From Candidatus Heimdallarchaeota archaeon (lineage in GTDB: Archaea; Asgardarchaeota; Heimdallarchaeia; Heimdallarchaeales; Heimdallarchaeaceae), in contig DAOVER010000031.1 of NCBI GenBank assembly GCA_030668875.1, forward strand, positions 794-32,793: DNA of 32,000 nucleotides. The letters run 5' to 3'. Under the pieces are notes generated by a model. It ran no database searches and was not told where the DNA came from. It was given only the letters and a program-made list of their open reading frames with translations. Made by a program: the position numbers and the translations under genes. Shown here piece by piece: positions 15,681 through 27,810 of this stretch (position 1 is its first letter; every line of letters starts with the position of its first letter).

Positions 15681-17495
15681 TTAACTATTTTCTTGTGATT
15701 CCATGATTGATAATTCCCATCCTCCAGGATTCCTAAACATTATTGTCTGTTCAGATAGAGGATCTATTTGCATTATTAGCTCTACATTATGTTGTTTGCG
15801 GAAATGAGATGAGGCTTTATACACTCTGAATTTACCTTCTAGTAGATGGAGCGAGGTTCCAAGAGAAGCTTTCGGAGTTAACTCATTCGTTTCATCTAAT
15901 ACAGCTATTCTAGAGTTGATTTCCCAGTTCATCACACGTATAATTGGAATCATTTTGCCTTTTACTATCATATGGCTTTTTCCAATGCAATATAATGAGG
16001 ATCTATACTCTGTAGGCATGGAAGCTAATTCTTTGAAAGCTTTAACGAGATATTTATCAAGGTCTCTTGGTTTATATGTTAGGTCTAAGTTAATATTATA
16101 ACTTGTTTTAATCTCAGGATATTTCTTTATGAAATCATTATACATCTTTTGAATATTTGCCTTGACTCTTTCTAAGCCTGCATAATATAACCAACTAAGG
16201 TATTCTATGCTCGCAATACACATTCCTTTATTTTCACTGTTCAAAGAAAGATAAAATGTTTGTTCAAACATTAAGCTTGCTTTATCTAGATTTCCGAGTT
16301 GCATATATTTGAAACCAAGTTGGTTAATGAATTCGATATTATCATAACCTTCAATTATTGAACGTTCCTCTACACTTTCTCGTTTCAAAATCACTGTAAG
16401 AAGGACTAATGCCCTAACTACATTGGATACATCAGATCGATTGCACTGATTACATGCTGCTTCGAAAGCTGGAGTAAAATATGAATTCAATCTCTGAATC
16501 TGTCCTGAAAGCAGAAGGATAATCATTCTTAAGAAATGTACATCCACACCATATTCTTCAGAGGCATTACTATTTTGAAATAGAATCATCATAAGCTTAT
16601 CCATATACACTCTAGCCAGATCTATCTTCTTGTTTTCAATCAAACAGATACAGGCTAAATATTGCAATCTACCCAATAACAGAAGTGATTCATTGTAAAG
16701 ATTCTGATCTTCTATTTTATCGACAGCTAATTTCCAATCCACCAAATGGTCTGTAATTTCTCTGACTCTTGTCAATAATTCATCTTCAAGTTCAACATAC
16801 TGTCCTTGTAAGAAATCCTCTTCTAGATGAAGCATATCCCTACCAATTTCCACAAGTAACTCTTGTAGTTGTATTGATTCCAGAGAAAAACCATCGCTCT
16901 CTTTGAGTTGAGCAGCTGCTTGCTGAGTTAATTTTTCTTCATACTCGGTACGAATTACTGAGATTGCAGAGTCAAGAATTTTCTTAATTCGTTTTACTGG
17001 ATCATATCTATTTGTGCTTTCTACAGAATATCTAATTTCAGCAGCAAACAACTTAGAATCTAGTTCCTTTAGAAATGATTCTATACTTATATCTTCATTC
17101 TCTTCAATTAGTCGCTTGACAAAAGCGCTATTTGTTAGGGTTTTTATTCCAATCAATTCAGCTGTCTCAAGCAATTTCAGATCGCTACTAACAACTGTTG
17201 CATTCAATTTTGAGGCCGCGTAAATAACAGAAAGATCAGGTTTTTGTGGAAGGCTAGTTGTTTGGTTATGAATTTTATCCATAAATTTCTGAAAATCCTT
17301 GTTGTTAATTGGTTCCACTGTGATATAAGGTAAGATTTCACGTTGAAGGAAGAATCTCATTTCATTTTTAATATGATGTGTAATGAAAATATCAACTTTC
17401 AGTGATTCAAACAAAGTAGCAAATTTGCGAAATTTTGTAGGTTGTACCTGAAATCCACTGATAAAGAAGTTTGTATCTAAAACGTATTTCCCCAT
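15681..17495 (-). CDS. PIN-domain protein with long helical/TPR-like region and beta-rich C-terminus
   Basis: YVLDTNFF, NEM, PDLSVIYAA, VVSSDLKL supply the four PIN acidic positions; later segments (LLLGRLQYLA..DLARVYMDK; LGFKYMQLGNLDKASLMFEQ) look TPR-like. Confidence 0.75.
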   Translation of the reverse strand: MGKYVLDTNFFISGFQVQPTKFRKFATLFESLKVDIFITHHIKNEMRFFLQREILPYITVEPINNKDFQKFMDKIHNQTTSLPQKPDLSVIYAASKLNATVVSSDLKLLETAELIGIKTLTNSAFVKRLIEENEDISIESFLKELDSKLFAAEIRYSVESTNRYDPVKRIKKILDSAISVIRTEYEEKLTQQAAAQLKESDGFSLESIQLQELLVEIGRDMLHLEEDFLQGQYVELEDELLTRVREITDHLVDWKLAVDKIEDQNLYNESLLLLGRLQYLACICLIENKKIDLARVYMDKLMMILFQNSNASEEYGVDVHFLRMIILLLSGQIQRLNSYFTPAFEAACNQCNRSDVSNVVRALVLLTVILKRESVEERSIIEGYDNIEFINQLGFKYMQLGNLDKASLMFEQTFYLSLNSENKGMCIASIEYLSWLYYAGLERVKANIQKMYNDFIKKYPEIKTSYNINLDLTYKPRDLDKYLVKAFKELASMPTEYRSSLYCIGKSHMIVKGKMIPIIRVMNWEINSRIAVLDETNELTPKASLGTSLHLLEGKFRVYKASSHFRKQHNVELIMQIDPLSEQTIMFRNPGGWELSIMESQENS

Positions 17496-18564: not shown

Positions 18565-19647
18565 ATGACAAAGAAAGTCCGAATTGCAATTGCAGGTTTA
18601 GGAAATTGTGCTTCATCACTAGTACAAGGTCTTGAATATTACAAGAATGTAGATGAGAAAGATTTCGTTCCTGGAATTATGCACGTAAAATTTGGTGATT
18701 ATCATTTATCTGATGTTGAAGTAGTTGCTGCATTTGAGGTAAATACTAAAAAGATAGGGAAGGACATCTCGGAAGCAATTTGGCAGAGTCCAAATCTGAG
18801 TAAGAAGTTTTCCGATGTTCCTCATAAAGGAGTTACTGTTCAACCAGCACCCATAATGGATGGTGTAGCTCCTCATATGAAGGAATCTTTTCACTGTTAT
18901 GATCCCACACAATTAGAACCAGTCAATGTTACTGATGTATTGAAAGAATCTAATGCAGATGTTCTTATCAATTTCCTTCCAGTAGGTAGTGAAACTGGGG
19001 CACAAATGTATGCTCAAGCATGTCTTGATACTAATGTTGCTTTTGCAAACGGTATTCCAGCATTTATTGCATCAAACAAAGAATGGGGTCAAAAATTCAC
19101 AGACAAAAATATACCTGTTGCTGGAGATGATATAAAATCACAGTTAGGAGCAACAATTTTACATCGTATGTTAGTAGGATTAGCACATGAGAGAGGGATT
19201 AAGCTTGATGAAACATTTCAATTGAATATCGGTGGAAATACAGATTTTGAGAACATGAAAAAAGAGTATAGACTGACCACAAAGAGAATTTCCAAAACTG
19301 AAGCAGTTACAAGCATGATACCATATGAAGTTCCAACTAGGATAGGACCTTCTGATTATGTTCCTTTCCTAGAAGATGAAAAAATATGTTATCTTTGGTT
19401 GAAGGGAAAGAATTTTGGTGAGCAACCTTTGAGTGTGCAACTTAAACTATCAGTACAAGATTCTCCAAATAGTGCAGGTGTTATGATTGATGTAGTTCGT
19501 TCTCTTAAAATCGCAAAAGATAGAAACATAGGAGGACCTTTAATTGGAGTTTCAAGTTATTTCTTCAAACACCCACCAAAGCAGATTCATGATGCTGAAG
19601 CTGTGCAACTTGTTGAGAAATTTATCAAGGGAGAAATAACAAATTAG
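18565..19647 (+). CDS. ino1: myo-inositol-1-phosphate synthase (archaeal/actinobacterial type)
   Basis: GLGNCASSLVQG, GDDIKSQLGAT, QLNIGGNTDF, KRISK, DEK, DSPNSAG, FFKHPP. Confidence 0.95.
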   Translation: MTKKVRIAIAGLGNCASSLVQGLEYYKNVDEKDFVPGIMHVKFGDYHLSDVEVVAAFEVNTKKIGKDISEAIWQSPNLSKKFSDVPHKGVTVQPAPIMDGVAPHMKESFHCYDPTQLEPVNVTDVLKESNADVLINFLPVGSETGAQMYAQACLDTNVAFANGIPAFIASNKEWGQKFTDKNIPVAGDDIKSQLGATILHRMLVGLAHERGIKLDETFQLNIGGNTDFENMKKEYRLTTKRISKTEAVTSMIPYEVPTRIGPSDYVPFLEDEKICYLWLKGKNFGEQPLSVQLKLSVQDSPNSAGVMIDVVRSLKIAKDRNIGGPLIGVSSYFFKHPPKQIHDAEAVQLVEKFIKGEITN

Positions 19648-19657
19648 GGTGATATGA

Positions 19658-20728
19658 ATGTTAAAAAATGAAATTAAAGTAGCTATTGCTGGAGTAGGAA
19701 CAATTGCATCTGGTTTAGTACAAGGTATTACTTTTTTTGAAGAACATCAAGATAAACGAAAAAATCTCTTACATCCATCTATTGGAAGATTTGAAGCACA
19801 AGACATTAAAATCGTTGCTGCTTTTGATGTTGATTCAACAAAAGTTGGAAAGGACATTGCAAAAGCTATTTTTGCTCCAATTAACAGCACACCAAAATTC
19901 ATAGAAGTTGAGGATACTGGAGTGATTGTCAATAAAGGTCCTGTAAAAGACGGTCTATCAGATCACTTGAAGAAAGTAATAACAATAGCTGATGGTGAAG
20001 AAGTTAATGTTGTTGAAAAACTAAAAGAAACAAAAGCAGATGTACTTGTATGTGCAATCCCAACAGGAGCAGAAGAAGCGGTCATAGCTTATGCACAAGC
20101 AGCTTTGGAAGCTGAAATTGCTTTCATAAATTGCACTCCCACAACAATTGCTTGTGAACCTTCTTGGGCGCGAAAATTCAAGAAAGCAAATGTTTGTTTG
20201 ATTGGTGATGATTTACAGTCCCAAGCTGGTGGAACAGTTCTGCATAAAGGTTTTCTTGATGTTCTCAAAGAACAGGGTGTAACAATTAAAGATACTTACC
20301 AACTCGATGTTGCAGGTGGACTTGAGACTCTTAATACATTAGATGATGATAGAAAACAATACAAGAGAGAAGTTAAAGAAAGGACTTTAAAACAATCGTT
20401 CAAGAACGATATTAATCTTGCAAGTGGAACCTCAGATTATCTAGAGTTTCTTGGAAATCGTCGTATAGGTCACTTTTGGATCCGAGGAGAAGGGTTTATG
20501 GGAATGCCCGTTAAAATTGATATGAGACTAGAAACGCTAGATGGACCCAATGGTGCTGCAACTTTAATAGATGTTATTCGTGCAACAAAAGTAGCGATTA
20601 ATCGTGCAGGAAGTGGTCCCATAAGTTCTATTTGTGCTTATGGATTCAAAGCACCTCCAGTATTCTCTGATAGACATAATGCACATAAATGGTTTAACGA
20701 ATATCTAGAAGGAATAAGAACTGAATAA
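19658..20728 (+). CDS. Divergent inositol-1-phosphate-synthase-like paralogue
   Basis: Same motif order but GDDLQSQAGGT, QLDVAGGLET, GNRR, DGPNGAA, FKAPP; GGTGA 5 nt before ATG, 10 nt after the ino1 stop. Confidence 0.85.
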   Translation: MLKNEIKVAIAGVGTIASGLVQGITFFEEHQDKRKNLLHPSIGRFEAQDIKIVAAFDVDSTKVGKDIAKAIFAPINSTPKFIEVEDTGVIVNKGPVKDGLSDHLKKVITIADGEEVNVVEKLKETKADVLVCAIPTGAEEAVIAYAQAALEAEIAFINCTPTTIACEPSWARKFKKANVCLIGDDLQSQAGGTVLHKGFLDVLKEQGVTIKDTYQLDVAGGLETLNTLDDDRKQYKREVKERTLKQSFKNDINLASGTSDYLEFLGNRRIGHFWIRGEGFMGMPVKIDMRLETLDGPNGAATLIDVIRATKVAINRAGSGPISSICAYGFKAPPVFSDRHNAHKWFNEYLEGIRTE

Positions 20729-20746: not shown

Positions 20747-21721
20747 TCATATTAGCCTAAGTGTGTTTGTGATAGATATCAGTTTATCTCTTGATTCAGA
20801 CTGAGGATATTTTTCAAGAATCTCAATGGCAAGATTGATGTAATTATTGATTTCCTTTTCTATTAGCTTGATAGAAGCAGATTTTGCTATTATTTTTCTG
20901 ATTTTTTGAGGAGAATATTCCTTCCTTTCTAGATAATATCTAATTAAGATGTCTTTCTCTTCTTTCTTTACCAAATCTATAGTTTCAAGTACAATATAAG
21001 TCTGGATTCTATTAGAAATGTCTGTTAAAACGCCTGATTTTCCAAGTTTTTTTGAAGTAGATGTAATTGCTAAAAGGTCATCTCTTAATTGAAAAGCTCT
21101 ACCAAAATATTTACCGAAATTCTTCATATTCACTCTATCTTCTTTACTTGAAGTCCCCAGGACTCCACCAATAACCGAAGCAGCTTCGAAAAGACTTGAT
21201 GTTTTTCTATCTATAAGCAGCAGAGCTTCTTCTTTAGACATTCTTTTCTCCCCCGAACGGAATTTCTCTTCCAAAAAAAGCGAAGAAGAGAGGTTATGAA
21301 TAGTCTTAACAAGCTCATCTACAACATCGATTAGCTTGGTTTTTGCAGCTAAGCTTAATGCAAGGCTGCTCATTGAATATGAAATTGAAAGTGCTGCAAA
21401 AGTTGAATATTTTAAATAGAAAGATTTTTCATTTCTTCTAAAAATGTCTTTATCAAAAATATCATCAACCAATAATGAAGCATTGTGAATGACTTCTAAA
21501 GCACAAGCAGCTGCAAAGCTTGTGTCATCACGTGCTTTATTCGAAATCATTTCAAAAGATAATAAACATATAAGGGGACGAATCCGTTTGCCACCATTCT
21601 GAAGAATCTGATTTATTAGGTCATTTATTTCATCATCAAATGGACTCTGATCTTTAAGAGTTGAAAGGTAATCGTTTATCTCTTTTACTTCTTCGGTAAA
21701 ATCTAAGTTAGCTAAGGACAC
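20747..21721 (-). CDS. Trans-isoprenyl diphosphate (polyprenyl) synthase family
   Basis: GGKRIRP, HNASLLVDDIFD..RR, KTSSLF, AFQLRDDLLA; GTG start. Confidence 0.9.
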   Translation of the reverse strand: MSLANLDFTEEVKEINDYLSTLKDQSPFDDEINDLINQILQNGGKRIRPLICLLSFEMISNKARDDTSFAAACALEVIHNASLLVDDIFDKDIFRRNEKSFYLKYSTFAALSISYSMSSLALSLAAKTKLIDVVDELVKTIHNLSSSLFLEEKFRSGEKRMSKEEALLLIDRKTSSLFEAASVIGGVLGTSSKEDRVNMKNFGKYFGRAFQLRDDLLAITSTSKKLGKSGVLTDISNRIQTYIVLETIDLVKKEEKDILIRYYLERKEYSPQKIRKIIAKSASIKLIEKEINNYINLAIEILEKYPQSESRDKLISITNTLRLI

Positions 21722-21779
21722 TGTAATCTAATACCGACTCTAATTTGCCTAAAAAAACTTATTGCAACTGCGAAATTTT

Positions 21780-23279
21780 TTATTTTGTGAGAGATTCCAC
21801 TATCATATACATATTCTCTAGAAAAGAATTCACGAAAAACAATATTAGTACAACATAAACCAACGATATAATAAATGAGATATGAAATCCTGGTTCCACA
21901 TAATTCATCTTTGTTGTTTTTCTGTAATCTTCTACGAAGAACCATTTAACCAAACGTACCATATACACAAATGAAAATACCAGCAGCACCACATAAGAGA
22001 TTGATAGTAACAAACCCCGAATACCTAAGGTATTATTGAAAAAAATATCACGAGAAACAAAAGGAAGAATAATTGGAAGAGCAAAGATGATGAAATAACT
22101 TAAGCTAGTAAATACGAATAAGAAGTTAGAGCGTCTTCCTAAATCTTTCAGTGCAGTGAAATCATCATTTCCGTATCTTGAGGAGAGTAAACCAACGATA
22201 CTGAATGAAAAAATGAATATTGCAAAATACAATACCAAGATGAAAACAAGTGATCTTATTAACTCATTGATAATGACTCCTTCTTCTGTTGAAGCCATAA
22301 TGTTTGACAGTAACATAAATACAATGCCTAAATAAATCATGCTTGTATAATGTAAGAGCTTTTTGAGCTTGTTAACCGTCATTGCAGCTATAGAACCCCA
22401 GAGCGTAATCATGATACCTAATATAAGGAACAACCAGGTCAATAAGTTGGAAAGACCTATTGTGTAGAGCTGCAAGCAGAATTTAATCAAAAAAGCTAAG
22501 CTGATTCCTCTTTGAACAATTAGGATGTAAGAAGATGTGGAGATACCTTCTTCATTAGAATAATCAAACATCCAGAAATGAAAAGGAGGAGACCCACAGT
22601 TAACAAACATACTGATCAGAATAATTGCTATACCCAAATAACTCCACAAATCTGAATATAACTCTGATGAGATTCCAAAACTATTTTGGGAGAAATACAA
22701 AATGGATATTCCTACAAACAACAAAGCAAGTGAGAGGCTGTTAAGCATGGTCGTATTAAAAATATGCCGTTTTTTATTTGGTAAGTTTGTCGTTGGAGAC
22801 AAAGAGCGTATAAAGAAGTTTAAACTCGAAAATAGTATAACAAAACCAAAGAAAACAAATATCCATGTTTGTGAGGATACAATGAAAAAGGATGACAATT
22901 GGATAAGTAATAAAGAAATGAATGCCATGAAGCTCTTCTCTGAATTCAGGTTAGCTTCAACAATAGAGAAGAAAATAATTACAACAGATGATAGAACAAC
23001 CACACTATAGATTGAAACTGAAAAAAGGTCTATTTCCAAAGGTAGTAATTCAATTTCAGTTCCTATAAAAGGAGTAAGTACATAGAGATAAGTAAGATAT
23101 GAAACAAAACTAATTATAACGGAAAAGTAACCGTAAATTATTCTCATCCTCTGTTTTAAGAATTTCAATTTTGTTGTTATCTTATTAGCAAAAAGACCAA
23201 TTACTACATTGATGATAACGCCAAATATTAAGATAAGCTGCGGAATGAATTTAATCAGAAGTGCAGCCTTGTCACTCAT
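21780..23279 (-). CDS. NuoN-like (complex I / Mrp antiporter superfamily) membrane subunit, degenerate
   Basis: About 14 TM; GSPPFHFWMFD, KKLLHYTSM, LKDLGRR, ALP..PFVSR match the NuoN framework; ATGA overlap with the upstream gene. Confidence 0.8.
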   Translation of the reverse strand: MSDKAALLIKFIPQLILIFGVIINVVIGLFANKITTKLKFLKQRMRIIYGYFSVIISFVSYLTYLYVLTPFIGTEIELLPLEIDLFSVSIYSVVVLSSVVIIFFSIVEANLNSEKSFMAFISLLLIQLSSFFIVSSQTWIFVFFGFVILFSSLNFFIRSLSPTTNLPNKKRHIFNTTMLNSLSLALLFVGISILYFSQNSFGISSELYSDLWSYLGIAIILISMFVNCGSPPFHFWMFDYSNEEGISTSSYILIVQRGISLAFLIKFCLQLYTIGLSNLLTWLFLILGIMITLWGSIAAMTVNKLKKLLHYTSMIYLGIVFMLLSNIMASTEEGVIINELIRSLVFILVLYFAIFIFSFSIVGLLSSRYGNDDFTALKDLGRRSNFLFVFTSLSYFIIFALPIILPFVSRDIFFNNTLGIRGLLLSISYVVLLVFSFVYMVRLVKWFFVEDYRKTTKMNYVEPGFHISFIISLVYVVLILFFVNSFLENMYMIVESLTK

Positions 23280-25219
23280 ACAATAACACCTACAATATAG
23301 AGAAAATATGTAAGGAGAAGGAGAAAAATAACAGAGAAAATAACATAAATCAGCTGTGATTTCTCTGAAGCAGTTTCTAATTTTCTGATGGTTTTAGATA
23401 AAGCAATGAAAAATGATTTAATTTTAGGAATCGCTACTTTTACAATAAAATTCTTCAATGCTTTCAAGAGGAATGTGATAATCCTAGCTAATTCTGTTAA
23501 AATAACTCCTACTAGAAATGCTTCGATGAAATAGCGATAAAACCATTTAATACTAGGAAGAAGGATTTTAAGATACAGAAGCTCTAAAGGAGAATAGAGA
23601 AAATCATAATAGTATATTTTCTGATAGGTTCGTTCAATTTTAAGCAAATATGGACTCATCGATTCATTAAATTCAATGAATACGGTCTTCAATAGAACAA
23701 AAGCCACTATTGCTATGAGAAAACTAATACCCAAAGGAAGAGCAGATAATAACAATGTCTGGTTTTCAATTGCAATTGGGGTTTCATAGAGACCAATAAT
23801 CTGGAAATAAGGGTAGATAGTAAATGTTAGAATATTGACTACAGCTAAAATAGCGACCAAAATGATGCTTCTAATAGATTTACGTACAGCTCTTTTACTC
23901 CAAAGATCATAAGCAAGTTTGATACCAACTATTCCAAGAAGGAATAAGAATAAGAAACCTATTATGAACAATGCTAAAGAGAGAGAGTTAGGTTGAGACA
24001 CATAGATTATGATTATACTTAGAACTGAACTACTAAGAGGGGGGACTCCAATAAGCCCAAGAAAGATTATAGCAGATGTTAGAAAGAAGGCTATGTTGGT
24101 GAAAATTTGAGGTTTAGTAGTTCCCATTTTATCTCTTAGTTCTTTCTTGCTTCTGTTCGTAATTATTATCGGAATCGCTGTTCCTACTATCATCATTACA
24201 ATCATATTATGAAAACCAATTGCATAACTTCCTGAACCAAATGTAAAGAGTATGTAAGCGAATAACGATGAGAAAACAAGAACTAGCAAAGAGCTTTTGT
24301 TATTGGTAAAAACTGCAATTGTTATAGAAATTATTGCAACGACTATACCAACCCAGGCAAAAACATCTGCTAAAACTGGTAAAAGATTGAAATAAGGGGT
24401 ACTAACAAACGCAAATAAACTTGTAAAAATATAGAAGGATAAAACAGGTATATTCCATGATAAATTATCTTTATTTGCATTTCTGAACCAAGTGTGAAAG
24501 GGAAAAATGGAGATTTTTGCTATAACACCAACAAAGAACAGAACATTTAGGAGGAGAAAATATTGATTATAAATAAAGAATTTCAGCTGAATATCATTAA
24601 TTATCATATTGTAATTGAAGGAACTTGTTCTTTTTATTAGTAAGATAAAGGATGTCAGGATTAATGCATTTGCAATAATCAAACTGAAGAACAGCTGTTT
24701 GAATCCTAGCTTATTCTCCAACATAGAATCTTTTGATAATGAATGTAGATACTCAAGATATAGAAAATCTAGAATAAACCATACTACTATTAATTGGAAG
24801 AAATTTGGTGAGAATACAAAAGGTATTATCAACAGAGCAAAATATGATAAACGATCCAAAGTTGACTTCGACAAATCTTGTTTTTCAGCTGCTAAATAGT
24901 TTAGATATACAGTTAAACATATTACTAGAACAGCATAGAAAATCGTTCTTAAAACTGATACTGAAAATCCTAAACTAAAAGAGAGATTATCAATATTGAA
25001 CAAATCTATAGATGTTTCATAATTACTATTATGATAAAGAACCATTGCTAAAACTGTTACAGATGCGAATATATTAGTTAGAGAGAAGAAATTGTGGTGC
25101 TGTTTCTGATTTTGTTCACTTCCTCCAATTAGCCTTAGAAGAATCGGAAATGCAAATAATATCCCCATCTGTGCTAATAGAAGTATGTTAATTAAGTTCA
25201 TTATCTTCAATCCTTTCAT
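23276..25219 (-). CDS. NuoL-like membrane subunit, degenerate (alternative start ATG 25201)
   Basis: FSPNFFQLIVVW, AKISIFPFHTW, DKMG, IGVPPL, a YYYDFLY amphipathic-helix region and final TM match NuoL. Confidence 0.8.
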   Translation of the reverse strand: MKGLKIMNLINILLLAQMGILFAFPILLRLIGGSEQNQKQHHNFFSLTNIFASVTVLAMVLYHNSNYETSIDLFNIDNLSFSLGFSVSVLRTIFYAVLVICLTVYLNYLAAEKQDLSKSTLDRLSYFALLIIPFVFSPNFFQLIVVWFILDFLYLEYLHSLSKDSMLENKLGFKQLFFSLIIANALILTSFILLIKRTSSFNYNMIINDIQLKFFIYNQYFLLLNVLFFVGVIAKISIFPFHTWFRNANKDNLSWNIPVLSFYIFTSLFAFVSTPYFNLLPVLADVFAWVGIVVAIISITIAVFTNNKSSLLVLVFSSLFAYILFTFGSGSYAIGFHNMIVMMIVGTAIPIIITNRSKKELRDKMGTTKPQIFTNIAFFLTSAIIFLGLIGVPPLSSSVLSIIIIYVSQPNSLSLALFIIGFLFLFLLGIVGIKLAYDLWSKRAVRKSIRSIILVAILAVVNILTFTIYPYFQIIGLYETPIAIENQTLLLSALPLGISFLIAIVAFVLLKTVFIEFNESMSPYLLKIERTYQKIYYYDFLYSPLELLYLKILLPSIKWFYRYFIEAFLVGVILTELARIITFLLKALKNFIVKVAIPKIKSFFIALSKTIRKLETASEKSQLIYVIFSVIFLLLLTYFLYIVGVIV

Positions 25220-25475
25220 CAGTTGTAGGTATTATAGTAAACAACTTATCTCTTACATAGAAGAATAACATAAGGATAACAGATAATACCCCGAGTAATG
25301 TAAATATTAATGCTTCAGCATTTAGTTGTACAACAGATAGGAAAAATATTCCAGTAAGAAATATCAAAACAAAACCTATGAAAACCTGTAAGCTTTTCTT
25401 GCTGAACAATATGAGAAATATTCCACATAAGAAACAAATAAAGGCAATTGATAGTATAAAACTCAGATATACCAT
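25188..25475 (-). CDS. NuoK-like 3-TM subunit, degenerate
   Basis: 95 aa; CFLCGIFLILFSKKSLQVFIGFVLIF aligns by eye with NuoK [26 protein letters not shown]; lies directly before the NuoL-like gene. Confidence 0.65.
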   Translation of the reverse strand: MVYLSFILSIAFICFLCGIFLILFSKKSLQVFIGFVLIFLTGIFFLSVVQLNAEALIFTLLGVLSVILMLFFYVRDKLFTIIPTTDERIEDNELN

Positions 25476-26146
25476 TGTTCAGAATCTCTCCTTTTGAATT
25501 GAGTGTAAATTTCAGTTAAAATTAGAATAAATGTGAAAAGCATTGCAAGAATTATTACAATAAGAATTGTTCTATAATCTGGATGAAGAGCAAATAAACT
25601 AGCAAGAGGGATATTTACAATATCTATCTTTCCTTGGTCCATAATAGAGAAAACTAAAAAGCCAAATAGTGAAGCAAAAGCGAAAATTATAATTGTATTT
25701 ATAACAAGTTTTGATCCTTTACTATCTGTCACTTCTATGTCTTCTGGATGGTTAATGTTTAAACTATAAAATAATAAGCCTAAGCATATAATATAAGAGA
25801 GACTCATGTTTATAATAAATAATAATGTCTGGTAAGTTGCTAGAAAAACAATAGAAAAGGACGAATATGCGAAAATGTGAAACATATATTTAATTCTTCC
25901 TTTTGTTAGAAAACCTCTAATTAGAAAACCCAAACCAAAGAACCCTCCAACATAAAAATAGCATTCATGAATCGTTTCAGGTAGAATTATTATCCAAACA
26001 GTGACAAAAGTAATTACAGCTGCTTTGATTAGAAACCAATGAAAGTTCTTTAATTTTGAAATGTTTGGCAGTATTATGAGAACAATGTTGACGAAACTAA
26101 GTAGACTTAGTATAATTGTACTCAATAGATAAGACATGTCAAACAT
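25463..26146 (-). CDS. NuoJ-like subunit with about 58 extra N-terminal residues (2 TM)
   Basis: ECYFYVGGFFGLGFLIRGFLTKGRIKY aligns by eye with NuoJ EFAFYICGLIAILATLRVITHTNPVHA; three TMs, polar linker, TM4, and a final ..LF..Y..I TM; precedes the K-like gene with a 13-nt overlap. Confidence 0.6.
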   Translation of the reverse strand: MFDMSYLLSTIILSLLSFVNIVLIILPNISKLKNFHWFLIKAAVITFVTVWIIILPETIHECYFYVGGFFGLGFLIRGFLTKGRIKYMFHIFAYSSFSIVFLATYQTLLFIINMSLSYIICLGLLFYSLNINHPEDIEVTDSKGSKLVINTIIIFAFASLFGFLVFSIMDQGKIDIVNIPLASLFALHPDYRTILIVIILAMLFTFILILTEIYTQFKRRDSEQWYI

Positions 26147-26200: not shown

Positions 26201-26974
26201 TCACGTCAGTTTTGTTTTACCTTTTCGCTTTTTCCGAAAGATGTAGAATAAGATAAATATTAATCCTGTTATGGTTATGAAACTTACGGGACTATCGTAA
26301 AGCCCTACTGTTGCTTCACCAAGAAATTGTGTATAGGTGAATAAAGGCACTGAAACATTATATTCAGGAAAAGTTGGATATTCAGGTACTAGATGACTTC
26401 CTGAACCAAATGTCGTGAAATTCCCAACAGTATAATTTATCCCCAGATCTATTCTATATTGAAGATTAACTCCTTCACTCTCAGTCAAATTTACATAGTA
26501 AATAGGAGTTTTATGTTGCAAATTAGCACTTATTTCTTCGTATAGTGGATCAGGGAAATATAGTACTTGCCATTTTGCTTTTGAAGTTTCAGGTATTCTC
26601 AATTTCCATCTAGCATTAATAATAATCCTAAATAGTTCAGTTTCTGTTTGGTAACCAAGGTGTGATAAATCGAATGCGTTTACACCATAAAAACCAAAAT
26701 AAATATCCATTTTTTCATCATCATCTGAGTCTAGACCCATAATGTTAAAATACAAATTAGGTCTTACAAAACCACCCACTGAACTGTTCAAACCAGCATC
26801 ATCTTGAGGATCGAAGATTTCGATACGCTGTTCGTCACTTCCTATTCTGCATATTCCTTCAAAATCCCACACATCCTCTTCTTCCTCTTCTGCTTGTATG
26901 GAATGATAGAAAGATGAAGTGATAAAAACTGTTACAATCAACAAACTTGTAATAACTAAATACTTGTTTTTCAT
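26201..26974 (-). CDS. Exported protein with signal peptide and C-terminal TM anchor (paralogue B)
   Basis: MKNKYLVITSLLIVTVFITSS..IQA signal; C-terminal SFITITGLIFILFYIF-RKKRK; several N-x-S/T sequons. Confidence 0.8.
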   Translation of the reverse strand: MKNKYLVITSLLIVTVFITSSFYHSIQAEEEEEDVWDFEGICRIGSDEQRIEIFDPQDDAGLNSSVGGFVRPNLYFNIMGLDSDDDEKMDIYFGFYGVNAFDLSHLGYQTETELFRIIINARWKLRIPETSKAKWQVLYFPDPLYEEISANLQHKTPIYYVNLTESEGVNLQYRIDLGINYTVGNFTTFGSGSHLVPEYPTFPEYNVSVPLFTYTQFLGEATVGLYDSPVSFITITGLIFILFYIFRKKRKGKTKLT

Positions 26975-27810
26975 TTCCTTTTCCTCCTAGTGACCTGATT
27001 AGTTGCAATAAGAATAGCTATACCGCCAACTGCTGCAATAGATGCTAGAAATGGGAAGGCCACTCTCAGACTATGAGTTCTAGATAACGATAATCTCTTG
27101 AAATTCTGAGCGATTGTCACATTATATTGAGGCCACCAATAATCTGTGTTTTCAGGTTCTTGAGGATCTGTATATAATGGTGATTCTCCACCATAGGTAG
27201 TAAAATTACCATATATAATTGTCTGATCTTTATTTATTTGTTGCCAAATACCTACACTACCAATTTGAGTATTCAATCTTACAATATGTATGGGCAATCT
27301 TAGTTTATATATTAATTGCGCATACAATTCTGAATCAAATAATTCTTCATGTGTATATTTTATTTTATTTATAATTGTCGCATATATGGGTGCAAGTTCT
27401 TCATCATATTCAGCTGTTTCATTATCCATAACATCTTCAGTCATGGTGACCCAAGATATTCCTTCACTTGTAACATTGAAACCATATTTTCCCCTCAGAC
27501 TTGTGGTTTCAAAGAAATCTGAATATTGTGGGGCGTTCCGTATAGGTTGTATTCCATGTAATGCAACAAGGGCGTCAACTCCTGTAATATCGTCCTGTTC
27601 CAAACAAAATAGAAATGTTCGCGTTTGTAAAGGATCAACATAATACGAAGGAATAACTTTAACTCGGTATTTCTGCTGTGTAACAACGCCTTGAAACTCC
27701 CATTTTTCCTCACCAACAACAGCATTGATAGTGACTGTTGAACTAGAAAGGAAAGGAGCTATCAAAAGCGAAACAATAAATGCTATACTAATAAATCTGG
27801 ACTGTTTCAC
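26971..27810 (-). CDS. Exported protein with signal peptide and C-terminal TM anchor (paralogue A)
   Basis: MKQSRFISIAFIVSLLIAPFL..INA signal; C-terminal FPFLASIAAVGGIAILIA..RRKRK; GTG start with GGAGG upstream; ATGA overlap with paralogue B. Confidence 0.8.
   Translation of the reverse strand: MKQSRFISIAFIVSLLIAPFLSSSTVTINAVVGEEKWEFQGVVTQQKYRVKVIPSYYVDPLQTRTFLFCLEQDDITGVDALVALHGIQPIRNAPQYSDFFETTSLRGKYGFNVTSEGISWVTMTEDVMDNETAEYDEELAPIYATIINKIKYTHEELFDSELYAQLIYKLRLPIHIVRLNTQIGSVGIWQQINKDQTIIYGNFTTYGGESPLYTDPQEPENTDYWWPQYNVTIAQNFKRLSLSRTHSLRVAFPFLASIAAVGGIAILIATNQVTRRKRK

Follow-up and report, generated by a model that had tools for sequence, protein, structure and literature searches.

What can a membrane arm resembling that of complex I do once most of the charged residues needed for proton pumping have gone? 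The question is raised by four intact, overlapping and stop-free open reading frames, J', K', L' and N' (hereafter the arm cluster), on the minus strand at positions 21780-26146 of the window, i.e., the whole 32,000-nucleotide stretch of Candidatus Heimdallarchaeota DNA analysed here. A preliminary description had read them as complex I homologues that are repurposed rather than decaying and no longer pump. We examined the identity of the encoded proteins, the fate of the relay residues, the distribution and origin of the genes and the roles they may have.

Gene layout and subunit identity

Consecutive genes overlap by 13 nt (K'/J'), 32 nt (L'/K') and 4 nt (N'/L'). Upstream, S2 and S1 overlap by 4 nt, and 54 nt separate the end of S2 from J'.

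Table 1 Arm cluster and adjoining genes in the window
Feature	Position	Strand	Description
S1	26971-27810	-	279 aa, exported, membrane-anchored
S2	26201-26974	-	257 aa, exported, C-terminally anchored, S1 paralogue
J'	25463-26146	-	227 aa, NuoJ-like membrane protein, ~7 predicted helices
K'	25188-25475	-	95 aa, NuoK-like 3-TM protein without either membrane glutamate
L'	23276-25219	-	647 aa, NuoL/NdhF-like antiporter-type subunit
L' C-terminal part	23276-23668	-	~residues 518-647: long amphipathic stretch and last TM helix
N'	21780-23279	-	499 aa, NuoN/ND2-type antiporter-like subunit, TM5 Glu/TM7 Lys pair gone
Polyprenyl diphosphate synthase	20747-21721	-	PF00348, 156 bits; context gene

By sequence, N' and L' are clear homologues of NuoN and NuoL. 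N' matches PF00361 with 42.5 bits (cut-off 21.5) and TIGR01770 NuoN with an E-value of 1e-20, far under the equivalog cut-off, and its family profile finds Nad2/NuoN chains at 5e-21; the L' family profile finds NdhF at 1.9e-20, M. smegmatis NuoL at 5e-14 and E. coli NuoL at 4e-8. Support for calling K' and J' NuoK-like and NuoJ-like is weak and specific. K' alone gives no significant match to Oxidored_q2 (E 0.47); profile-profile alignment with canonical NuoK (hhalign) yields a probability of 66% (P 5.6e-5; controls at most 7%), with residues 2-42 of the two proteins paired and V36 opposite E36. For J' there was no sequence-level match and none in Pfam. Against 33 canonical NuoJ sequences hhalign gives 53% (P 1.4e-4; controls 0.1%), J' 57-113 covering E. 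coli NuoJ 3-55, and J' carries about two additional N-terminal TM helices relative to NuoJ. NuoJ, ND6 and NdhG chains make up most of the best 50 Foldseek matches to the low-confidence J' model (pLDDT 64), including all of the first eight, at weak scores (E 0.02, TM 0.31). All four arm proteins score far under the curated equivalog cut-offs.

Prediction of an N'+K'+J' complex, with J' as the partner, gave a score of 0.52 (runs 0.49, 0.52 and 0.61), against 0.00 for the best of three controls; no two runs differ in more than 29% of contacts, and the partner has a pLDDT of 64 or higher. In calibration, 58 out of 80 solved complexes passed, as did 2 out of 110 mismatched pairs, the passes at or below 0.60 comprising only seven of the solved complexes and both mismatched pairs. 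The predictor may simply have been reproducing solved complex I, and the prediction is weak support for these subunit identities.

The two exported paralogues are part of the operon in most genera, with S1 as its first gene. S1 consists of a signal peptide, an external domain of ~200 aa, a C-terminal TM helix and a basic tail, and has no Pfam or NCBIfam family match. In alignment, S1 and S2 share the motifs W-D/E-F-x-G, GNFTT-F/Y-G and P-x-Y-N-V/I-S/T, together with conserved N-x-T/S motifs, and their dN/dS values are 0.19-0.38 and 0.16-0.35, respectively. Matches to this family are confined to Heimdall-labelled MAGs, and wherever the genes were located, in the loci read and in whole-genome matches in three genomes, they lie directly upstream of J'. 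The S2 model (pLDDT 75) is beta-rich, and none of the solved folds matches it convincingly (Foldseek E>0.1; VIA Z at most 4.8, OB-like and in the noise range). Two genera retain the arm without S1/S2, so carriage of these proteins cannot be its sole role.

Fate of the relay residues

Residues of N' and L' were mapped by HMM/profile alignment, which in canonical controls was one or two positions off in the second half of L' (TM8-TM12). The E. coli numbering used in the preliminary description proved correct, and the mapping reproduced its substitutions in N' (E133 to V147, K217 to N227, K247 to R257, H305 to Y316 and K395 to R410) and K' (E36 to V36, with E72 lacking a counterpart). The losses listed for L' were likewise recovered (E144 to F148, R175 to L, D178 to N, H254 to L and K399 to S, and H338 and K342 without an aligned counterpart); in addition, D400 is replaced by S. 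Of three supposed retentions in L', K229 (K235) and H334 (H337) stand, but K305 maps ambiguously to K308/S309 and is not family-conserved.

Across the N' family, E133 and K217 are absent from all ten representatives, whereas in a positive control with the same profile the eight matches ranking next, all canonical NuoN, show E/K/H/K/H/K at the six positions, save for a single Q at H305. Residue R257 in TM8 (K247) is R/K in 18 of 18 sequences; R410 in TM12 (K395) is variable, and its position is unconstrained. Invariant residues of N' include PPFH231-234, WG294-295 and E462, and there is also a VEPG motif. Over 13 orthologues of K', the E36 column holds V/M/A/L/F/T and TM3 has no conserved acid. 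In the L' family the E144 column is F/I/L, the H334 position is H/Q/E, and H254, K399 and D400 are absent by profile mapping; P598, S608, E615 and Q622 in the C-terminal part are invariant. However, all 13 L' sequences retain the TM7 Lys (K235), and all have an acid at D151, three positions after E144 (Glu in one). The canonical arm paralogue of the same genome retains nearly all of the relay residues lost here.

The parallel loss that had been proposed is thus found in N', K' and L' but is not uniform, given the L' Lys and acid and the N' TM8 basic residue. The non-pumping reading is an inference, weakened for L' because the Asp of WFILD, named in the preliminary description as evidence that would count against it, is conserved one turn from E144 and near the invariant TM7 Lys. 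From these alignments, a reduced or altered ion path through the L' TM7 Lys and acid, the H/Q/E at H334 and the TM8 basic residue of N' is possible.

Distribution, selection and origin

Of the 29 genomes in one GTDB family, the Heimdallarchaeaceae, 27 carry N'; no stop interrupts its match in any of these 27, which span at least five genera. The dN/dS of J', K', L' and N' is 0.15-0.34 (dS 0.3-0.7), compared with 0.10-0.20 for the adjoining prenyl synthase. Since the charge losses are common to the most divergent members (24-27% identity), they are old. Intact frames, wide retention, dN/dS well under 1 and old substitutions shared by orthologues family-wide all agree with repurposing rather than decay. 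A search with the N' family among 1.84 billion representatives returned 14 matches at E≤1e-30, the last of them at 210 bits; canonical NuoN sequences come next, at 115 bits, and in sequence the family is small and isolated.

The composition of the arm differs between genera. One genus retains an M', which in G011 has its TM5 Glu in place. In a different genus, represented by two closed genomes, L' is a gene of 151-152 aa between K' and N' that matches L' profile positions 530-651 (E 3e-6), the lateral helix and last TM; the L' pump core, absent from both genomes, is dispensable. These differences could alternatively reflect slowly relaxing constraint.

In a maximum-likelihood tree N' falls inside NuoN (100/98), adjoining Asgard Nuo-type NuoN, and its stem measures 2.06 changes per site. 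With the N' profile, the Nuo-type NuoN encoded by a sister-family genome (G010) reaches 102 bits, the hydrogenase-type N from the same genome as N' 20 bits. G010 has an intact nuoH-I-J-K-L-M-N operon with an FpoF-like gene, followed by a prenyl synthase and tandem inositol-phosphate synthases that are 68% and 54% identical to the pair in the window. Because N' nests in NuoN and the sister-family operon has the same downstream neighbours, the arm cluster looks, by phylogeny and gene order, like what is left, in its original place, of a Nuo/Fpo-type operon. The preliminary description was right in presuming an Asgard source for the DNA and a separate canonical arm elsewhere in the genome; this arm lies on contig C15 (nuoH-A-J-K-L-N next to hypE/hypF, the C-D-I-B genes being 20 kb upstream).

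Comparison with known systems places the arm cluster nearest the membrane arm (P-module) of complex I/Fpo, with which it shares the gene order J-K-L-(M)-N and, in L', the NuoL/NdhF-type long C-terminal helix region and final TM. It differs as follows: (i) no NuoA, H, B, C, D or I was found at any arm locus examined; (ii) N' lacks the TM5 Glu, TM7 Lys and TM12 Lys, K' both glutamates, and L' E144, H254 and K399/D400; (iii) J' has its two extra TM helices; and (iv) two exported proteins are added upstream. Like Mrp (CPA3), it has stand-alone antiporter-like subunits and a NuoK-like subunit without a redox module, but the Mrp relay residues are missing, no MrpB/E/F/G-like genes were found near the cluster, and the N' profile favours ND2/NuoN (78 bits) over MrpD (30 bits). 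The DabAB CO2-uptake system and NDH-1MS (NdhD3/F3-CupA) also use NuoL-type proteins outside classical complex I, and both retain the charged relay. The L' profile matches DabB2 weakly (E 3e-6), giving 76 bits for NuoL/NdhF against 29 for DabB, and no DabA or CupA-type partner was found near the cluster. Heimdallarchaeia have group 4 [NiFe]-hydrogenase complexes that resemble complex I but have a short arm with only two antiporter-like subunits, L and N (Appler et al., bioRxiv 10.1101/2024.07.04.601786), and a term search of that preprint returned no mention of a degenerate arm cluster. The one in this genome, at C15, is canonical (PF00361 at ~200 bits); the arm cluster is separate from it and descends from Nuo-type, not hydrogenase-type, subunits.

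Possible roles of the arm

We lean, with a little more than even confidence, towards an in-place Nuo/Fpo remnant that is now a non-redox, non-pumping membrane platform. The ancestor of the Heimdallarchaeaceae would have lost the redox and quinone module and NuoH/A while J-K-L-N stayed, NuoM being lost later in most lineages. Very rapid divergence of the four remaining subunits would then have erased the unbroken Glu/Lys/His chain by which proton pumping is coupled and driven, while their folds and subunit contacts were kept under purifying selection. They may assemble into a small complex-I-like arm, with J' and K' beside N' and L' distal, strapped together by the long C-terminal helix and last TM of L'. 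Such an arm would transduce no redox energy and pump no protons in the canonical way; we infer that it serves as a platform bearing S1/S2 in most genera, to which it would be physically linked.

It is unlikely, though worth serious weight, that the arm has kept a role in ion transport, as a slimmed-down channel or antiporter for cations or protons that works without redox input, Mrp-like in logic, and uses Asp151/Lys235 and His/Gln337 of L' with Arg/Lys257 and His234 of N', or a new set of residues. The unbroken conservation of the L' Lys/acid pair and of the N' TM8 basic residue speaks for it, as do the invariant PPFH (the TM7 broken-helix motif), the TM5 Glu of M' in G011 and purifying selection on the arm genes. 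Yet L' has no TM12 Lys/Glu, the TM12 position of N' is free to vary, the NuoK glutamates are gone, and the N' TM5/TM7 pair has become aliphatic and uncharged in all members; moreover, one genus dispenses with the very L' core that bears the best-preserved pair, and the lack of Mrp-type neighbours and the low MrpD score also count against such a role. The aliphatic or aromatic residues conserved at the former Glu positions would suit a path now accessible to lipid, along which a polyprenyl-linked or other hydrophobic substrate is bound or translocated. We regard this as decidedly unlikely, also in its proposed partners: the prenyl synthase, an ABC exporter pair and glycosylated S1/S2. The synthase lies 58 nt past N' on the same strand, possibly co-transcribed as a context gene, and in most loci it comes after N'. 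Conservation of the neighbourhood also covers two half-transporter genes of ABC_membrane+ABC_tran type, which form a divergently transcribed pair, and genes of lipid synthesis (HMG-CoA reductase, inositol-phosphate synthases); the N-x-T/S motifs of S1/S2 are conserved. However, synteny across the family extends equally to unrelated genes (S17e, a KaiC-like ATPase), so adjacency says little, and the G013 locus lacks the prenyl synthase. The linkage to prenyl and inositol-phosphate synthases is older than the degeneration, because it is also seen after the intact sister-family operon; in two further Asgard families, too, canonical nuoN has a polyprenyl synthase gene after it. To our knowledge, lipid transport by an antiporter-like fold is without precedent.

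The genome has two NuoBCDI sets and one canonical membrane arm, and the NuoB-C-D-I-type set on contig C3 has no adjoining membrane genes, a pattern repeated in the closed genome G016 and in G011. The arm might accordingly anchor this orphan module in a second, non-pumping redox complex, which we consider improbable. The only NuoH of this genome is located at the canonical arm; the other genomes likewise have one each (G015, with an extra full nuo-type set, has two), always at a canonical arm; nothing like NuoH or NuoA, on which the Q-module docks, was found in the degenerate cluster; and the short orphan-type NuoD (372-376 aa) was not detected in G014 and G013 (89-91% complete), which nevertheless retain J'K'L'N'. 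Slow, functionless decay, with frames open by chance or through weak selection against misfolded membrane proteins, would account for the very fast evolution (26-36% identity within one GTDB genus, against 58-68% for the prenyl synthase), for the piecemeal loss of M', the L' core and S1/S2, and for an arm dN/dS about twice that of the neighbour. It is highly improbable: the four frames are intact, N' is free of stops in its 27 genomes, dN/dS is far under 1, overlap-based translational coupling is retained, and motifs remain invariant in N' (PPFH, WG, VEPG) and L' (K235, D151, the C-terminal S/E/Q).

The platform reading therefore remains the one we prefer, and the job of the arm cluster is probably something other than redox-driven proton pumping. 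For the family as a whole, the balance tips slightly towards a complex I-type respiratory operon of which the Heimdallarchaeaceae have kept just four highly diverged membrane-arm genes.

The gene row and its surroundings

The four genes J', K', L' and N', which resemble degenerate nuoJ, nuoK, nuoL and nuoN, follow the genes for two paired paralogues, S1 and S2, both exported and anchored at their C termini. All four frames are open in the window, with zero stops, as the preliminary description had stated, and the order J-K-L-(M)-N holds in all loci, M being represented by a NuoM-like extra gene (M') in genome G011. Genes for NuoB, C, D and I, NuoH and NuoA are absent from the window and from every orthologous locus; with neither NuoH/A nor a Q-module at the locus, there is no redox input there. 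Flanking genes encode S1/S2, ABC half-transporters and a prenyl synthase; MrpB, E, F and G are not among the products.

Features of the gene row and adjacent genes in the window
Feature	Position	Strand	Remark
ABC_membrane+ABC_tran half-transporters (two)	from 27958	divergent to gene row	
S1	26971-27810	-	tightly packed row
S2	26201-26974	-	4-nt overlap with S1; then 54-nt gap
J'	25463-26146	-	after 54-nt gap from S2
K'	25188-25475	-	13-nt overlap with J'
L'	23276-25219	-	32-nt overlap with K'
N'	21780-23279	-	4-nt overlap with L'; 58-nt gap after
77-aa ORF	21712-21945	-	other frame, overlapping N' 3' end
Polyprenyl synthase	20747-21721	-	follows N' after 58-nt gap
Inositol-1-phosphate synthases, tandem paralogues	18565-19647 and 19658-20728	+	downstream of row, other strand
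604-aa protein	15681-17495	-	conserved

Several of these neighbours have features of their own. The polyprenyl synthase carries small residues (Ala, Ser) at positions -5/-4 relative to its first Asp-rich motif (HNASLLVDDIFD), has DDLLA as its second motif, and reaches no NCBIfam equivalog cut-off. The second inositol-1-phosphate synthase has a much lower Pfam domain score than the first (72 vs 105 bits), and the pair is conserved at every related locus and also in the sister family. The 604-aa protein is found in synteny at every related locus, beside rps17e and the gene for a KaiC-like ATPase, and matches no Pfam family at E<=1e-5, with a faint PIN_5 hint in precomputed tables. The 77-aa ORF is probably spurious.

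Homology of the four membrane subunits

The assignment of N' is secure. As a single sequence it scores 42.5 bits against PF00361 (Proton_antipo_M; cut-off 21.5) and aligns over its full length with TIGR01770 NuoN (E 1e-20, 74.2 bits), although it does not reach the equivalog cut-off of 332.6, nor that of NF004445 (36.9 bits; cut-off 408). A profile of 18 N' orthologues matches plant Nad2, cyanobacterial NdhB and E. coli NuoN with E 5e-21 to 7e-14, and MrpD and NuoM rank below these, MrpD low. L' has no Pfam match as a single sequence and reaches E 2.8e-9 against NCBIfam NdhF, and a profile of 13 L' orthologues matches NdhF/NuoL with E 2e-20 to 4e-8, with NuoN and DabB behind. The C terminus of L' consists of about 100 amphipathic residues and a TM segment, and is predicted from its sequence to form a lateral helix plus last TM, which we call the strap.

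K' and J' are not recognisable as Nuo subunits as single sequences: K' reaches E 0.47 against PF00420, below the Pfam cut-off, and single-sequence Pfam and NCBIfam searches returned zero matches for J' (PF00499, the NuoJ/ND6 family, included), S1 and S2. Searched against PDB sequences, the J' profile gave chance matches only (DUOXA, E 0.8), and an ESM Atlas look-up gave no usable match. Profile-profile comparison with hhalign, using alignments of 33 canonical Heimdallarchaeia and E. coli NuoK and NuoJ as targets, placed K' on NuoK (66%, P 5.6e-5) and J' on NuoJ (53%, P 1.4e-4, spanning NuoJ TM1-TM3), with cross-controls at 0.1-7%. The structural model of J' is poor (pLDDT 64), and of its 50 best PDB matches from Foldseek most, the first eight included, are NuoJ, ND6 or NdhG, all of them weak (E 0.02 or above, TM about 0.3). 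A joint prediction of N', K' and J' scored 0.52 against 0.00 for the best control, which is weak support, given that, for any guess that was not already likely, a pass near this value is more often wrong than correct, and that memory of solved complex I structures may contribute. We accept J-K-L-N as the correct reading, firm for N' and L' and probable for K' and J'.

Other families of antiporter-like proteins were considered in turn. Membership in the Mrp antiporters was rejected, MrpD ranking low with the N' profile and MrpB, E, F and G being absent nearby; a DabAB-type system was rejected on the L' profile scores. The view that the cluster is a paralogue of the hydrogenase-type arm in its own genome was rejected on profile scores and the maximum-likelihood (ML) tree. 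In that tree the N' clade nests among NuoN sequences (100/98), next to Asgard Nuo-type NuoN and apart from the hydrogenase-type N, and its stem is very long, at 2.06 changes per site. The L' clade is not joined to NuoL and groups with the long M' branch, a long-branch effect; the identity of L' is therefore taken from the profile searches and from its C-terminal architecture.

Fate of the relay residues

A conserved axis of Glu, Lys and His residues is regarded as what defines the membrane arms of complex I, Mrp antiporters and group 4 hydrogenases functionally. The preliminary description had reported its loss by eye, using E. coli numbering, and every number quoted there falls on the residue named. 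We mapped the positions by HMM, because MAFFT, when used to align N' with the canonical N of the genome, put TM5 five columns out of place. Counting charged residues within TM cores delimited by hydropathy failed to tell the family apart from canonical subunits, the TM mask being too permissive, and was dropped in favour of position-specific mapping.

In the 18-sequence alignment of N', E133 is replaced by V/I/L and K217 by N/S/L/Q/V (V/I/L/S and N/S/L/Q/V/F/G over all members), K247 (TM8) is R or K in 18/18, H305 is Y/H/F/L, and K395 (TM12) is R/P/H/K/Q/E/N/S or a gap. An exhaustive search of 1.84 billion representatives served as a control: ten full-length members of the N' family (210-581 bits) all lack E133 and K217 and retain R/K in TM8, and the next-best matches, canonical NuoN at 102-115 bits, show E/K/H/K/H/K at the six profile positions in seven of eight, the eighth deviating solely by Q at H305. 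Since the controls are read correctly at these positions, the N' mapping is sound.

Among 13 K' sequences, E36 is replaced by V/M/A/L/F/T (V in the window copy) and TM3 holds no conserved acid, so that neither glutamate of NuoK (E36, E72) is present; judged by sequence, K' would be a homologue of NuoK and not its functional equivalent. L' is less thoroughly altered. K229 is retained in 13/13 and E144 is replaced by F/I/L. The Asp of a WFILD motif, raised earlier as a possible replacement for E144, stands in part: an acid (Asp, in one case Glu) occupies E144+3 in all 13 sequences, and the canonical position itself is lost. Further along, R175 is L/F/Q, D178 mostly N, H254 mostly hydrophobic, H334 H/Q/E, K399 S/G/N and D400 S/N/T/V/I. 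In canonical controls the mapping over the second half of L' is shifted by one or two positions; the TM12 motif region (G-V/I-P-P-L-S/N-S...) contains zero charged residues. The TM5 Glu/TM7 Lys pair is thus absent in N' and partial in L', and of the central TM8 Lys/His and terminal TM12 Lys/Glu there remains the TM8 R/K of N'. M' of G011, a very diverged antiporter-like protein of 495 aa encoded between L' and N' (L046:7331-8818), has the TM5 Glu and lacks the TM7 and TM8 Lys and the TM12 Glu.

Origin, conservation and possible use of the arm

A search for a separate canonical operon, proposed in the preliminary description, found nuoH-A-J-K-L-N beside hypE/hypF on another contig (C15) of the same genome, with C-D-I-B genes 20 kb upstream. 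This arm, which carries the sole NuoH of the genome, is of the short-armed group-4-hydrogenase/complex-I-like type described for Heimdallarchaeia in a preprint (bioRxiv 10.1101/2024.07.04.601786). It keeps almost every relay residue missing from the degenerate arm; in the C15 arm (L004:10064-15602) the TM7 Lys of the N subunit is Thr and the second NuoK glutamate is Val, the other relay residues being kept. The genome holds two NuoB/C/D/I-type modules for its one NuoH, on C15 (L069:6809-9582) and on a third contig, C3 (L068:7056-9541), where the B-C-D-I set has no membrane-subunit genes alongside; the same pattern occurs in G011 and in the closed genome G016.

N' does not derive from the C15 arm: its profile gives 20 bits for the hydrogenase-type N encoded there vs 102 bits for the Nuo-type NuoN of G010, which belongs to the sister family. 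G010 has an intact nuoH-I-J-K-L-M-N operon followed by genes for a Dak2/FakA-like kinase, a small GTPase, an FpoF/FrhB-like protein and a polyprenyl synthase, with tandem inositol-phosphate synthases, 68% and 54% identical to those of the window, 6 kb past the latter. Because downstream neighbours are common to both loci, we read the degenerate cluster as an in-place remnant of a complete Nuo/Fpo-type operon. The FrhB/FpoF-like gene (L101:2172-3413) after the intact operon suggests an F420-dependent (Fpo-type) input module in this sister Asgard lineage. Beside the degenerate cluster, most genomes examined in the window's own family lack any Nuo-type arm.

Word-indexed and exhaustive protein searches showed the N' family to be small and isolated, its members coming from metagenome-assembled genomes labelled Heimdallarchaeaceae or Heimdallarchaeota. 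This isolation, together with the place of N' next to Asgard NuoN, speaks for an independent origin of the degenerate arm in archaea. Within the 399 genomes of the phylum, full-length N' is confined to a single GTDB family, where 27/29 genomes have it, and no N' match in this set contains an internal stop; weaker profile matches elsewhere are partial, restricted to the C-terminal part of the profile and, where inspected, canonical NuoN. The losses are common to the most distant members and therefore predate the radiation of the family. The expectation that dN/dS would lie well below 1 was borne out in five close orthologues (NG86, dS 0.3-0.7), with 0.26-0.34 for J', 0.15-0.29 for K', 0.18-0.27 for L' and 0.16-0.24 for N'; the adjacent prenyl synthase gave 0.10-0.20. 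The arm proteins evolve fast, at 26-36% identity within a GTDB genus vs 58-68% for the prenyl synthase. Plain decay is very unlikely. Among the sequencing runs listed in our searches, marine-sediment metagenome runs, which may be its source, carry the DNA and no RNA run appears, and full-text literature searches found no description of a degenerate J'K'L'N' cluster.

The composition of the cluster varies. In the closed genomes G015 and G016, from another genus, the place of L' is taken by a gene of 151-152 aa (L043:8538-8996, L044:8581-9036) whose match to L' is limited to the amphipathic C-terminal region with the invariant S/E/Q motif and the last TM; its N terminus is acidic and repeat-rich, and nothing is left of the 14-TM core. 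S1 and S2 lie directly upstream of J' wherever they were located and were not detected in two genera that retain the arm. With M', the L' core and S1/S2 variable, the invariant core comprises J', K', the L' strap and N'. S1 and S2 have no recognisable fold and belong to no recognisable Pfam or NCBIfam family; for S2, Foldseek gave zero PDB matches at E<=0.001, a VIA-wide search gave OB folds at a best Z of 4.8, within the stated noise range, and an ESM Atlas look-up returned a single archaeal cluster (0.76).

What the arm does can be approached from what it has lost and kept. Current pumping models of complex I, Mrp and Mbh depend on a continuous charged axis, and with both NuoK glutamates, the TM5/TM7 pair of N' and the TM12 residues lost, that axis is gone. 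A residual ion path may persist, to judge from the residues themselves, through Asp151 and Lys235 of L' and Arg257 of N'. The arm may instead handle hydrophobic substrates, or may anchor the orphan NuoBCDI set of contig C3. These readings are less likely, specific observations speaking against each. On balance we lean towards a non-pumping membrane platform, which best accounts for the persistence under purifying selection, for the strap that has been retained and for the exported subunits that were added. A bolder proposal, which we regard as possible and hold more tentatively, is that J', K', the L' strap and N' together with S1 and S2 form a new membrane machine derived from a complex I arm, whose function, other than charge transport, would use the fold, the broken TM7 and the strap; such a machine would, for example, hold or move surface proteins or hydrophobic molecules.

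For annotation, J'K'L'N' should not be counted as complex I or as evidence of respiratory capacity in Heimdallarchaeaceae. The stand-alone lateral-helix protein of one genus, the Asp/Lys pair confined to L' and an N' with Arg/Lys only are natural experiments that could help to part structural from catalytic roles of the relay residues. Asgard archaea are the closest archaeal relatives of eukaryotes, and an arm with neither relay axis nor redox head, under purifying selection across a whole Asgard family, implies that the fold of the complex I arm has a second use.
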